64,000 nucleotides of DNA. It comes from Octopus vulgaris (taxonomy: Eukaryota). How positions within the stretch are numbered: position 1 is the first letter of the stretch; every line of letters begins with the position of its first letter. The notes beneath the pieces were generated by a model. It made no database searches. It was not told the DNA's origin and saw only the letters and a program-made list of their open reading frames with translations. Where the stretch lies: assembly GCA_951406725.2 (NCBI GenBank), contig OX597824.1, positions 76,384,001-76,448,000 of the forward strand. The letters run 5' to 3'. Shown here piece by piece: positions 17,308 to 54,101 of this stretch. Made by a program: the position numbers and the translations under genes.

Positions 17308-17955
17308 AGCCAAATCGGAACAGATATTTTTCACGAGGCATTCCTCTTGCTACCTCGGCAATATCTGACCTAAAATTTTCAAATCGTCGCACTCGCGCCA
17401 AATTTATCGGCAGCAAATAAACCACCGATTCCGTTACGGAACTAACCAGAAAATTCATAATTAATCAATATAGGGTGGCAAAAAAATTTTTGTAGAATTC
17501 TTTTGCCACCAGCGGCCTAGTAGGAAAAATTAGTTTACCATTAAACGGTAGATGAAACGGTGCATCGTCTAAGAAAATACAGGGTAAAAGTTTTTCAATT
17601 TTCTCCTGGTTTACGGTATTAATGTTATTTTGCGGTTAAAGCTTTTGGCTGTTATTTCTAGTGGGTGAATGGCCTATTATGGCCGTTCCTTGATTGTGAT
17701 GTTGAACGTAAAAATGGTTTATGACTATTTAATTTTTTCCTACTAGGCCGCTGGTGGCAAAAGAATTCTACAAAAATTTTTTTGCCACCCTATATTGATT
17801 AATTATGAATTTTCTGGTTAGTTCCGTAACGGAATCGGTGGTTTATTTGCTGCCGATAAATTTGGCGCGAGTGCGACGATTTGAAAATTTTAGGTCAGAT
17901 ATTGCCGAGGTAGCAAGAGGAATGCCTCGTGAAAAATATCTGTTCCGATTTGGCT

Positions 17956-18062
17956 ATTTCTTACTGATGAGTCTAAGGGCCTATGGTGGATTGGCTTGAT
18001 TTAATTTAATCAGGTTAGTTTACCATTAAACGGTAGATGAAACGGTGCATCGTCTAAGAAAT
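17956..18062 (+). ncRNA. Type I hammerhead ribozyme (array copy 3), extended stem II
   Basis: Stem I ATTTCTTA/TAAGAAAT (8 bp). Core CTGATGA at 17964-17970. Stem II GTCTA/TAGAT encloses a long hairpin. GAAA at 18039-18042. Stem III ACGGT-gc-ATCGT. Cleavage triplet GTC at 18052-18054. Confidence 0.85.
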
Positions 18063-18440
18063 TACAGGGTAAAAGTTTTTCAATTTTCTCCTGGTTTACG
18101 GTATTAATGTTATTTTGCGGTTAAAGCTTTTGGCTGTTATTTCTAGTGGGTGAATGGCCTATTATGGCCGTTCCTTGATTGTGATGTTGAACGTAAAAAT
18201 GGTTTATGACTATTTAATTTTTTCCTACTAGGCCGCTGGTGGCAAAAGAATTCTACAAAAATTTTTTTGCCACCCTATATTGATTAATTATGAATTTTCT
18301 GGTTAGTTCCGTAACGGAATCGGTGGTTTATTTGCTGCCGATAAATTTGGCGCGAGTGCGACGATTTGAAAATTTTAGGTCAGATATTGCCGAGGTAGCA
18401 AGAGGAATGCCTCGTGAAAAATATCTGTTCCGATCTGGCT

Positions 18441-18547
18441 ATTTCTTACTGATGAGTCTAAGGGCCTATGGTGGATTGGCTTGATTTAATTTAATCAGGT
18501 TAGTTTACCATTAAACGGTAGATGAAACGGTGCATCGTCTAAGAAAT
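18441..18547 (+). ncRNA. Type I hammerhead ribozyme (array copy 4)
   Basis: Identical motif, offset by 485 bp. Confidence 0.85.
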
Positions 18548-18925
18548 TACAGGGTAAAAGTTTTTCAATTTTCTCCTGGTTTACGGTATTAATGTTATTT
18601 TGCGGTTAAAGCTTTTGGCTGTTATTTCTAGTGGGTGAATGGCCTATTATGGCCGTTCCTTGATTGTGATGTTGAACGTAAAAATGGTTTATGACTATTT
18701 AATTTTTTCCTACTAGGCCGCTGGTGGCAAAAGAATTCTACAAAAATTTTTTTGCCACCCTATATTGATTAATTATGAATTTTCTGGTTAGTTCCGTAAC
18801 GGAATCGGTGGTTTATTTGCTGCCGATAAATTTGGCGCGAGTGCGACGATTTGAAAATTTTAGGTCAGATATTGCCGAGGTAGCAAGAGGAATGCCTCGT
18901 GAAAAATATCTGTTCCGATTTGGCT

Positions 18926-19032
18926 ATTTCTTACTGATGAGTCTAAGGGCCTATGGTGGATTGGCTTGATTTAATTTAATCAGGTTAGTTTACCATTAAA
19001 CGGTAGATGAAACGGTGCATCGTCTAAGAAAT
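18926..19032 (+). ncRNA. Type I hammerhead ribozyme (array copy 5)
   Basis: Identical motif, offset by 970 bp. Confidence 0.85.
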
Positions 19033-19709
19033 TACAGGGTAAAAGTTTTTCAATTTTCTCCTGGTTTACGGTATTAATGTTATTTTGCGGTTAAAGCTTT
19101 TGGCTGTTATTTCTAGTGGGTGAATGGCCTATTATGGCCGTTCCTTGATTGTGATGTTGAACGTAAAAATGGTTTATGACTATTTAATTTTTTCCTACTA
19201 GGCCGCTGGTGGCAAAAGAATTCTACAAAAATTTTTTTGCCACCCTATATTGATTAATTATGATTATATATATATATATATATATATGACGGGCTTCCAA
19301 ACAGTTACCACCGACTAAATTCACTCACAAGACATTGTTCGGGCAGGAGCTATAGTGGAAATCCCTTGCCCAAGGTAGCATGCAGAACCCTAAACGATAT
19401 GGTTGCAAAGTGAGCTTCTCACCGAAAGATAGATATTTTCTACCGATAGATAGATATTTTCAAAGTAGCTAAACAACACTTTATTGTAGACACTGGGTGA
19501 GATACTGATTAAAAATGGACAAGAATTTATGCACAGAAAAATAACAATTTTCAAATTAAAGCTTTAATAAAAACAATTTATTAATACAAGATGCAAATAA
19601 ATGTGTTGTAGGAAAAGTATTCATGTATTTTAGAAAATACTTTATGTGTATGGTCGTATTTGTAAAGCCAATGATATAATGTGTGTATTATGTATAATAG
19701 CATTATGCG

Positions 19710-50749: not shown

Positions 50750-50985
50750 CGGTAAACTGGCATGAACGTTAGTACGCCGGGCGAAATGCTTAGCGGTATT
50801 TCGTCCGCCATTACGTTCTGAGTTTGAATTCCGCCGAGGTCGACTTTGCCCTTCATCGTTCCGGGGTCGATAAATTAAGTACCAGTTACACACTGGGGTC
50901 GATGTAATCGACTTAATACCTTTGTCTGCCCTTGTTTGTCTCCTCTATGTTTAGCCCCTTTTGGGTAATAAAGTAATAGGTATTC
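50750..50985 (+). mobile_element. SINE family A
   Basis: Core motif as above. Confidence 0.85.
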
Positions 50986-51301
50986 CGTTCGTGAGAGAAG
51001 ATAGCAGCTAGTAAGACTGTGTATGTTTGTAGCTGTGCAGGCATTAGACTGCTATGTGTATATATAACAGTCAGCATCAGAGCTCTTTAGCTCTTCTTTC
51101 TAGCATACTATCTATTCTATTACCCATTGTCATATTTAATGAAAATTATAGTTCTCTTTTTCGGTGATACATTGCTTAACTACTGCCGAATTTAAATTAT
51201 TTGTATACACATTAGCGATTCACTAAATTATCCATAGATTTTTGTGGAGCAGGTATATATACTGGTAGTGATCTTGTCCGGAATCCGGTGTATTGTGCCG
51301 A

Positions 51302-51352
51302 CCCTACTGAAGAGGCTTCGATCTTAAAGCCGAAACCGTCGTCGGTATAGGG
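51302..51352 (+). ncRNA. Canonical type I hammerhead ribozyme
   Basis: CCCTA-CTGAAGA-GGCTT-cgatctta-AAGCC-GAAA-CCG-tcgt-CGG-TA-TAGGG. All three stems pair, and predicted cleavage follows the GUA ending at 51347. Confidence 0.85.
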
Positions 51353-51827
51353 ATATCACGACTGACACTTTCAGCCGTTTACGATCACTGTCAGTATATA
51401 TGTATACAATTATGTGCGTTTGACCGCAGGATCAAACACTTTAACTCTTATTTCTAGCGTTGTAGGTGTTCTAGCATCCGCTGTCATATTCAATGATAAT
51501 TATATATATAAATATATATATATCATCACTAGTTCATATATCCGAAAATCTGTTGAGTTAAAATCTTCCTTGGATATGTGGGTTCGAAGGGAGTGGTAAT
51601 TAGGTTGTAGGTTCCCTATCTTCATCCAAAATTCCCACAAAAATTTTCTAATATTAGAGCACAAACCTAAATGCACACCCATAAAAAACATACAATCATA
51701 TGCAAGCAAGCTGGAAGGACTCTTCTCCTTTCTTCTGAATTTTTTGGGAAGTTTGTCAAGATTTAAAATTTAAAATTTAATCTTTTAAATAAAATCTTAT
51801 TTATATTCTCATATTCTTGTATGGGGA

Positions 51828-52212
51828 TGGAAGCACTCCGTCGGTTACGACGACGAGGGTTCCGGTTGATCCGAATCAACGGAACAGCCTGCTCGTGAAA
51901 TTAACGTGTAAGTGACTGAGCGCTCCACAGACACGTGTACCCTTAACGTAGTTCTCGGGGATATTCAGCGTGACACAGAGGGTGACAAGGCCGGCCCTTT
52001 GAAATACAGGTACAACAGAAACAGGAAGTAAGAGTGAGAGAAAGTTGTGGTGAAAGAGTACAGCAGGGATCACCACCATCCCCTGCCGGAGCCTCGTGGA
52101 GCTTTAGGTGTTTTCGTTCAATAAACACTCACAACGCCCGGTCTGGGAATCGAAACCGCGATCCTATGACCACGAGTCCGCTGCCCTAACCACTGGGCCA
52201 TTGCGCCTCCAC
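51828..52212 (-). mobile_element. SINE family C, full length
   Basis: Near-identical to the 41798 copy. Confidence 0.9.
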
Positions 52213-53899
52213 ATTCATGTATGAACGTATACACGCGTTTTATAATGGCTCTCTTACACACATATCTAAAAGAATCTATTATAAAATATCCACGTTTCAA
52301 ACAGAATTGGAGAAACATTTATAAATGCATAGGCAACAAGCACGGCCTCATAAAACACAAATGTAAAAATAACACTCTCCAGCAAATGCACACATACACA
52401 AAAACACACGCTCATATACCCATATATATATATATATATATATATATATATATATACACACACGCACACACATATACATATATATAGATATTCGTATATA
52501 TATAAATATATATACATATATATAAATACATACATATATATATATGCACCCCCCCAGCACACATATATATACATATACATATTCCAGTTTGACTAGAACG
52601 AAGAATAGGCCGCTTGCTGCTAGCTCCCAGGATACCAAACCACAAAACTGACTTAAATAAACTTTTTCCCTTACCTTCACTCTCTCCTTTCTTTCTACAC
52701 ACACACACGCACACACGCACGCACGCACGCACACACACACACACACACACACACACACACACACACACACACACACACACACACACACACAGAGATACAT
52801 ATATACATACATACATAAACACAAAGTCATTTGTGCATGTATTTTTTTTTGAAGTATTTATAACTATACCTTCACACAGGAAGCAGGAAAAAGTTTACAT
52901 TATCATATACAACATATGAATAGTCCCCACCTGCCAGATCAAAATCACACATACACAAAATAAAAACAAAAAAAAACATGACGAACTACTAATATATTTT
53001 TTTCTAAATCTTCACTGTAATTCGTTCATAACAATATGTCTGCCGAGAAACGTCAAAACTCCAGCAGAGATCCGTGTGCATTGTGTGTATATCTGTTTAA
53101 ATGCGTTGGCTACGTGTGGTCTTCTGAAACAGAACTGGTTCGCTGTGTTTGTTCAGAAATATATAAATTCGTAGCATGTGGTTTCCGGCCCGGTTACATC
53201 TCCTTCTCAGTTCACATCCTGCAGGTAACGCCTAGCACTAACAGCAGCGACAGAAGCATCAGTACAAGCGTACCCAGAGTAACCTCGTAACCAGTATGAC
53301 GACAGCCAATAATACCACTGCAGATAATACCAATACTGCTATTTCTATCGTCCTCATAGCCACTGCCAACGTTGTACTTGTTATTATCATCACCACCATT
53401 GTCGTCGTCGTCACATCGCCATTGTCACATTTAAAAACAAAATTTTTCTTATTTCAGTCATAAGACTGCGGCCATGCTAGAGCACTGCTTTGATATTTTA
53501 GTCGAAAGAATTGACCCAGTACATCATTTTTAGGTCTGGTACTTATTCTATCGGCCTCTGTTGCCGAACCTCTAGGTTACAGCGAAGCAAATACACGAAC
53601 ACTGGTTGTCAAGTGGTGGGACAAACATAGACACAGATACACACGCGCACGCACACACACACACACACACACACACACACACACACACACACACACACAC
53701 ACACATGTACACACACACACACACACACACAGACACACATATATACATATATATGTTTGCATGTATGTATATATTAATATAAATAAGGATAAGAGCGTTA
53801 TTTAAATATCGATCTTACCAAGTGGCCGGCATGGGAATAAAAACCTTCAAAGGTAATAATAATTATTATTATTATAATTTAGGGTATCTAAGACAGACT

Positions 53900-54101
53900 A
53901 CCACGCTGGAAATAGCAGCCAAAACGTGACTCTAAAACCACATTAAATGTTCATACAACACCAGGAGAGAAGACAAGAGACAAAATAGACTAGAAAAAAT
54001 TTTTTTTTGCTAGTTTATTCTCTTTGTTTTCTCTCCTGGTTCTGTATGAACATTTAATGTGGTTTTAGAGTCAAGTTTTGGCTGCTATTTCCAGCCGTGG
54101 T
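53900..54101. repeat. Fold-back with ~95-bp arms, related to the HHR-element family
   Basis: CTGGAAATAGCAGCCAAAA..CACATTAAATGTTCATACA..ACCAGGAGAG is mirrored on the right arm. It ends in (TA)n. Confidence 0.85.

Follow-up and report, generated by a model that had tools for sequence, protein, structure and literature searches.

The window examined here, 64,000 nucleotides of Octopus vulgaris DNA (contig OX597824.1, positions 76,384,001 to 76,448,000 of the forward strand), contains a set of short repeat elements in which a hammerhead ribozyme is commonly followed by a 19-nt motif. The elements belong to a known class, and the motif is a genuine block that a group of related elements has in common and that is better conserved than its flanks; it is neither a universal partner of hammerheads nor proof of a new family. 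On balance, we lean towards the view that the carriers are non-autonomous descendants of the terminal repeats of Penelope-like elements (PLEs), in which the motif is an inherited and retained cis-acting RNA site read by the protein of a partner PLE.

Motif copies and their carriers

A scan of the window at up to three mismatches gave 13 motif matches, against a mean of 0.01 in 100 shuffles. These fall in five places: array A with six exact copies, elements B, C and D with two each, and site F with one. Identity is 19/19 in all six motif-bearing repeats of A, 18/19 in D, 17/19 in C and 16/19 in both B and F.

Motif copies
17643-17661, 18128-18146, 18613-18631 and 19098-19116, plus strand: exact motif, direct arm of element A (pattern scan)
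17117-17135 and 16632-16650, minus strand: exact motif, inverted arm of element A (pattern scan)
29377-29395, plus strand, with mirror 29010-29028, minus strand: element B
37740-37758, minus strand, with mirror 38133-38151, plus strand: element C
53906-53924, minus strand, and 54076-54094, plus strand: element D
33451-33469, minus strand: site F, a lone variant adjoining a (CA)n run, without hammerhead (pattern and hammerhead scans)

Elements
16593..17529, minus strand: element A, inverted arm, 1.9 units of a 485-bp repeat with two type I hammerheads (cores 17299, 16814)
17530..19263, plus strand: element A, direct arm, 3.6 units with three complete hammerheads (cores 17964, 18449, 18934) and one 5'-truncated
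27058..27306, no strand: element G, a fold-back that has no hammerhead and shows homology to the A and D tails
28957..29449, no strand: element B, a fold-back with arms 89% alike, a U3-variant hammerhead on the minus arm (29158 to 29097) and a broken plus copy
37684..38303, no strand: element C, a fold-back with a tail of about 90 nt at the right; hammerhead on the minus strand (37925 to 37876)
51072..51504, plus strand: element E, a partial direct dimer (76% alike, period 355) with a hammerhead at 51307 to 51347; left boundary uncertain
53775..54102, no strand: element D, a fold-back without hammerhead, ends 22 and 165 nt after the motif's GCT

A first-pass annotation of this DNA had placed a copy about 74 nt past the cleavage site of the 485-bp units, and all six motif-bearing repeats indeed carry an exact copy that starts 74 nt after the predicted cut (69 nt in B, 118 nt in C and about 92 nt in E). 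Its minus-strand copy near 37741, with mirror, is likewise present, the minus copy lying 118 nt past cleavage, as is the 53906/54076 fold-back pair, where hammerhead scans found no ribozyme. Two further copies held up in part. The one at 29377-29395, described as about 70 nt after a hammerhead, does exist on the plus strand, but it matches at only 16/19 and the hammerhead of its own arm is broken, with AGAAT in place of GAAAC; the copy at 29010-29028, 69 nt past the better, non-canonical (U3) hammerhead of the minus arm, had been overlooked, as had the lone variant at site F. The partial copy at 51448 in E is present as a weak variant, but at four edits (near 51440) it lies close to background, since four edits or fewer occur in 4/458 background 200-nt windows and three or fewer in 1/458. 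Weak variants in E stand near 51085-51103 and 51439-51457.

Each A unit also holds a second, shorter look-alike (at 17948-17963 in one unit), which is the 5' strand of hammerhead stem I and occurs in A only. A motif scan of viral contigs gave four matches; 600 nt of each contained neither a recognisable hammerhead nor a recognisable element context, and these were taken as chance.

Relationship of the carriers

The carriers share an anatomy of hammerhead, motif, 50-70 nt, short end, a tail of about 100 nt and long end. Their ends are flanked by (TA)n, they form tandem and head-to-head inverted copies, and they have no open reading frame (ORF). Counted from the motif's GCT, the long end lies 162 nt away in A, 166 nt in C and 165 nt in D. 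In G, an element absent from the first-pass annotation, a much-diverged motif-like stretch (6 edits) lies 162 nt from the long end, a value that is not fully independent because the look-alike was placed by alignment. To the short end, the distance is 51 nt in A, about 67 nt in B, 70 nt in C, 57 nt in E and 22 nt in D; in A, the short end (inverted arm) and the long end (direct arm) both run into (TA)n. Tandem or inverted copies, a one-sided tail and microsatellite ends, the features of a PLE terminal module, were found in A, B, C, D, E and G, with the exceptions that B has equal arms and no tail and that E is a direct partial dimer.

When the motif was masked, 4/28 pairs of elements still aligned at p<=0.01 (A-B, A-G, D-E and D-G), against 2/180 controls, and C-G reached p 0.016; under strict correction only D-G passes, narrowly, and for 23/28 pairs the alignment falls short of significance at p<0.05. 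The alignment of A with B runs from hammerhead to short end, and colinear tail blocks occur among the carriers. The elements are thus less dissimilar than the first-pass annotation had proposed: four share a motif-to-end distance of 162-166 nt, and this spacing, together with the masked alignments, points in part to simple shared ancestry, the very outcome that the annotation had named as its refutation. Its other proposals, a second conserved signal beside the hammerhead and a link to Penelope, find support: the motif is kept far better than its flanks, with the masked flanks of A-C and A-D giving no alignment (p about 0.2), and the carriers are Penelope-type hammerhead elements. We consider it very probable that the motif is one inherited block of a PLE terminal module, and probable that its conservation above the flanks reflects selection.

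Array A and its family

The units of array A are 99-100% identical, with five complete hammerheads and no ORF of 100 aa; cleavage in the direct arm is predicted after 18054, 18539 and 19024. Two features of retrozymes without long terminal repeats (non-LTR retrozymes) were found in A: non-coding units in tandem that each contain a type I hammerhead, and a strongly self-paired monomer (z -4.8; as stable in 0/100 shuffles). Array A therefore fits a non-LTR retrozyme, with circular RNA and self-cleavage as predictions from its sequence.

In 4/23 listed runs, compared with the last unit in part of each table, family A shows very deep and variable coverage. Copies run into (TA)n near 19152-19156 in three of the four runs (X7, X13, X16) and at 19261 in X1, and these recurrent junctions match the two ends seen in the window. 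The variation falls on tolerated hammerhead core positions 7 and 17, which is only suggestive for self-cleavage. Three probable-RNA contig sets, their library type guessed, cover A, and in these a wrap-around joint would be indistinguishable from tandem DNA. No run is recorded as RNA, and X1-X14 were assigned to RNA by guess.

Three side observations concern the same contigs. A (TA)n tract stands directly before 18815 in X1 and X13 and represents a recurrent 5' junction of family A copies. A-to-G differences occur at 18953, 19034, 19041 and 19042 in probable-RNA runs and are nearly absent from the large run X16. In X1 a loose end rich in T-to-C differences crosses the motif (19095-19111), and together with the A-to-G sites this looks editing-like on both strands.

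Hammerheads with and without the motif

Our type I descriptor gave eight hammerhead matches in the window against a shuffle mean of 0.3: five in A and one each in B, C and E. Hammerhead calls rest on this descriptor and a looser scan, which added a fifth locus at 35805 to 35735 (minus strand), with a 3-bp stem I, in the 3' repeat of a decayed PLE. A further match at 41630, with a U3 core and a 3-bp stem, was dropped as chance before the five loci were counted. An Rfam search of the window returned no family at gathering score, and the weak matches, among 150/322 listed, were almost all microRNA-type models on simple repeats. The window hammerheads have a palindromic stem III, with an extra base after A9 in B and C, both of which are described for PLE hammerheads (PMC4209133).

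The motif clearly follows 3/5 of these loci; 1/5 is borderline and 1/5 has none. The first-pass rule that every hammerhead has a copy downstream thus breaks down at the 35805 locus, where the best match has 6 edits, which is background, and only a short look-alike, TGGCTATTTAG, occurs near 35692-35702. Conversely, D, F and the mirror arm of C carry the motif without a hammerhead.

A decayed Penelope-like element and its relatives

35644..37577, minus strand: decayed, 5'-truncated PLE with Hydra-clade features; linker and GIY-YIG remnant at about 36885-36000; end in (TA)n

Among named matches, the best for this remnant is a protein from Octopus bimaculoides, with 81% across 44% of the query. 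Marks of the Hydra clade are degenerate but recognisable in it, namely a CxCx5C-type linker, a C-terminal GIY-YIG with CxxC/CxH, a hammerhead and a (TA)n end, and its relatives carry DKT, RW, CxCx5-6C and CxxC/CxH motifs. The DKT, RW, linker and CxxC/CxH motifs and a (TA)n target are those given for the Hydra clade (PMC8557442 section 11). No reverse transcriptase (RT) core is recognisable in the remnant, and its assignment to the clade rests on motifs. A Pfam search of the remnant and its relatives gave nothing above cut-off, a search for longer homologues of P0003 found none, and the motif-masked comparison gave no significant alignment between the carriers and this remnant. Runs of (AAC/AAT)n and (AAG)n break the frame at 37010-37140 and encode stretches rich in Asn and Lys, which recall the Asn-rich inserts of rotifer Penelope elements (PMC3846280).

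A metagenome contig scan for PLEs of the Hydra type gave 79 loci, taken from the best 80 of 531 matches; 53 of these loci (about 43 groups) contain a total of 62 hammerheads. Viral contigs contained no related PLE loci. GCTC, 6-20 nt and GAGCACT follow 38/41 of the hammerheads that have at least 80 nt of downstream sequence, and in its strict form this Hydra box occurs 99 times in the related loci, against 1.2 in shuffles. The box is typically doubled. Relative to the cut, the first copy falls at +29 to +72 (n=33) and the second at +93 to +135 (n=23), and the pair lies between hammerhead and ORF start, with the second box shortly before the latter. Published Hydra consensus ends show the box too. 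Within loci L005-L083, examples are:

L011, 339-362 and 398-426: Hydra boxes
L033, 117-144: Hydra box
L078, 322-343: Hydra box

In 5/6 sister pairs a (TA)n junction lies 2-5 nt 5' of box 1 or box 2, at a TA-rich overlap, and the sixth pair is unanchored; junctions just before the boxes may explain the PLE 'tail'. The stem barely varies, and the box is therefore perhaps a sequence site rather than a fold. Nothing relevant to GCTC-loop-GAGCACT was found in literature listings within an open-access scope, subscription papers falling outside it.

We considered whether the motif is itself a Hydra box and rejected this. Covariance model R1 scores 15-34 bits on 12 held-out loci that were selected because they carry the box. 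None of its 19 window matches to E 10 is a motif copy, although one of them (E 9.9) touches the upstream motif copy of E. Motif copies rank 153-6927 of 127906 under a Hydra-box matrix. Insertion ends 2-5 nt 5' of the box, in the Hydra style, were not seen here either; the window's ends lie 22-166 nt 3' of the motif.

As a separate observation, a fold-back at 54560-54740 (J) contains the 3' half of a hammerhead without the motif. It holds a Hydra-box variant with an ACTC/GAGT stem at 54589-54625 (minus strand), a few bases beyond its short end, which is R1's top window match (E 0.3).

A lead from octopus Naiads

The 9-mers TGGCTGCTA and TGGCTGTTA occur four times in the 584,131-character PLE supplement of PMC8557442, three of them at the termini of octopus Naiads, where matches fall at the 5' start or 3' end of the consensus; octopus Naiads target (TA)n (PMC8557442). 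Line breaks in the supplement can hide word matches. For two further motif variants, chosen post hoc, 2/3 occurrences are terminal, and the Naiad copies can, by eye, close a GCTG/YAGT stem with longer loops. This comparison was made by eye and word search only, and of the three Naiads, two are closely related to each other. Additional 10-mers shared by the elements and the 3' regions of Naiads, picked after viewing, are expected by chance and were left unused. The 9-11-nt core of the motif at octopus Naiad termini is a lead only.

It is tempting to speculate that PLE proteins read a clade-specific, doubled inverted-repeat box (GCT-N-loop-N'-AGY), with reverse transcription starting a few bases 5' of the box and two boxes giving two tail ends. 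The Hydra clade would use GCTC-loop-GAGCACT, the motif would be an octopus version common to Naiads, and hammerhead-bearing non-coding RNAs would be mobilised by Naiad proteins whose own elements lack hammerheads. We regard this scheme as unlikely.

Possible role of the motif

Known PLE biology suggests how such elements could spread. Units would be transcribed and a PLE protein supplied in trans; this protein would nick (TA)n DNA and start reverse transcription inside the RNA at either of two sites. Two internal start sites would yield the short and long ends, and an inverted truncated copy would yield the fold-backs. Our best candidate for why the motif is kept, offered tentatively and at slightly less than even confidence, is that it is recognised in the template RNA by the protein of the partner PLE, perhaps in the form of a small GCTR-7 nt-YAGY hairpin. 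A binding or anchoring site is more likely than a start site, because every insertion contains a copy of the motif, which lies 20-165 nt upstream of the ends. In A, B, D and F the stem can form all four pairs, the fourth pair being G-C, A-U or G-U, and its G-U pairs work on the sense strand only.

A number of observations weigh against a retained protein-binding site of PLE origin. The motif follows only 1/62 hammerheads of the related PLE loci at up to three edits and 2/62 at up to four, which also tells against the general hammerhead-plus-motif family that the first-pass annotation had proposed. The published octopus element Hydra-1_Obim ends about 30 nt after its hammerhead without the motif, nothing above background follows the window's own PLE hammerhead, R1 recovers no motif copy, and the analysis found no autonomous partner with the full motif. 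In C and E the stem does not close, and the full A monomer folds with other pairs. In the stem 86% of cells pair, and covariation is not significant, being matched by 319 and 138 of 500 shuffles (9 rows). D's short end (22 nt) and site F depart from the common spacing. Six families in one window are a small sample, and the motif was defined on those families. Within family A no substitutions are listed in the motif, which is not significant either, as 35 variable places per 485 nt in X16 predict 1.4 among the rows listed. Protein binding by the motif and activity of the elements are predictions.

Other explanations must be set beside protein recognition. The terminal repeat could contain a short spliceosomal intron, comparable to the one of 75 bp in Drosophila virilis Penelope, with the motif as its 3' splice site; introns are known in PLE terminal repeats (PMC8557442). 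The motif is rich in pyrimidines, and its last bases are TAG or CAG in A, B, D, E and F; a donor-like GT lies 78 nt upstream in A and 74 nt upstream in the right arm of B (G|GT donor-like words occur in 86/1734 background 60-nt windows), and the majority base of family A at 19044 makes the donor blocks of A and B identical over 13 nt. However, C has no AG at that position, the left arm of B has no GT, and an acceptor has no need of the conserved TTTTGGCTG half. No joint skipping 19039-19116 appears in the three probable-RNA contig sets that cover the stretch, contigs showing presence and not absence, and we judge a splice site improbable. To a similar degree, we doubt that the motif is simply the least-eroded remnant of a common ancestor with no present function. 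Homology outside the motif, constant spacing, the badly eroded versions in G and E and the non-significant constraint within family A would all suit a remnant, but 16-19/19 identity among A, C and D, beside A-C and A-D flanks that cannot be aligned, is hard to obtain by even decay.

Still less probable is that the motif serves a host factor at the DNA level, for example as an internal promoter box common to the PLE-derived elements of this animal. In Penelope, the terminal repeat contains the promoter, which overlaps the intron (as cited in PMC8557442), and the motif's core recurs at the termini of octopus Naiads, a clade without canonical hammerheads, and at the lone site F. Nevertheless, the fixed distance runs to the 3' insertion end rather than the 5' start, and the sense-strand G-U pairs fit RNA. 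That unrelated hammerhead elements gained the motif independently, the strong form of the first-pass view, agrees with the 23 masked pairs that do not align, yet the equal long-end spacing in four elements, the colinear tail blocks and the A-B alignment from hammerhead to short end make it very improbable indeed.

One candidate RNA structure was rejected. Pairing of the motif with the sequence just past the cleavage site appears only in a truncated fold of A, has a probability below 0.1 in the full monomer and is impossible in B, C and E.

A small inverted repeat was observed near several ends. ACC-6 nt-GGT, a pattern defined post hoc on C, D and G, occurs at 38221-38232 (plus strand), 53843-53854 (minus) and 27131-27142 (minus), with four window matches against 0.2 in shuffles. 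In C and G it follows the short end at a distance of about 10 nt, in D it lies within the tail, and a related repeat at 18794-18802 (plus) lies 13-15 nt beyond the long end of A. By analogy with the Hydra box, this small inverted repeat just beyond the short ends may be the start-positioning signal of this group.

Other repeats in the window

Three further (TA)n-flanked fold-backs with one-sided tails, H, I and K (46833-47075, 48600-48920 and 16262-16520), are without the motif (best 6-8 edits). Dispersed short repeats at 125-491, 1759-2312 and 42264-43141 also occur as head-to-tail arrays (periods 184, 180 and 291), and the stretches 15495-15923 and 55813-56386, with short terminal inverted repeats of 29 and 37 bp, are probably DNA-transposon derivatives.

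Implications

The questions of how PLE proteins choose their templates and why insertions have two alternative ends have so far been answered only in part: one in vitro study mapped the start sites, though not the sequence that is recognised (PMC11167929). A short box that persists in diverged non-coding families offers a ready target for mutagenesis and could reveal which autonomous PLE is behind the spread of animal retrozymes; homology and co-occurrence have hitherto been the arguments for such a link. The doubled box of the Hydra clade gives a sharper prediction, namely that reverse transcription starts 2-5 nt upstream of each box. Should the motif reflect mere ancestry, our finding reduces to more members of a known element class.

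Comparison with known systems

Non-LTR retrozymes are derived from PLE terminal repeats according to a 2026 preprint (bioRxiv 10.64898/2026.07.22.740005). Those of metazoans resemble array A in their non-coding tandem units, a type I hammerhead in each complete unit, a stable fold and, probably, an origin in PLE terminal repeats (PMC7229834; bioRxiv 10.64898/2026.07.22.740005). Unlike in these, the stem II region of unit A spans 68 nt and includes an inserted hairpin, and array A has a head-to-head inverted arm. The parts of these two accounts that were consulted report no conserved box downstream of the hammerhead, and in the PLE, hammerhead and retrozyme texts consulted we found no description of the motif itself; the carrier families could already stand in an octopus repeat library.

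The pseudo-LTRs of PLEs share with the carriers a hammerhead near the 3' end, a palindromic stem III and pairs of hammerheads on opposite strands, and PLE copies likewise include inverted 5'-truncated copies, one-sided extensions and (TA)n targets (PMC8557442, PMC4209133, PMC3846280). The carriers differ in having no ORF and in tails of about 90-145 nt, as against 30-40 nt described for PLEs. Octopus Naiads have the 9-11-nt core of the motif near both consensus ends and a (TA)n target, and are without canonical hammerheads (PMC8557442 supplement). The doubled Hydra box is, like the motif, a short inverted repeat with a GCT/AGC core downstream of the hammerhead, and the 51-70 nt from motif to short end in A, B, C and E resemble the 56-83 nt from box 1 to box 2. 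The motif differs from it in the fourth pair and the 3' side, in its fixed 7-nt loop and in being a single copy.

The closest functional parallel is the Anolis Poseidon element (PAc). In vitro, its reverse transcription starts 111-118 nt into the ORF with the hammerhead cut at 26, that is, 85-92 nt past the cut, and RNA to +172 is required (PMC11167929). These starts lie in an AC-rich stem-loop inside the ORF, whereas the window motif stands upstream of the ends. Protein binding in PAc depends on a cis-region about 70-150 nt past the hammerhead, and its tail is delimited by two start sites (PMC11167929); the position of the window motif past its hammerhead is where PAc has this protein-binding and RT-start region.

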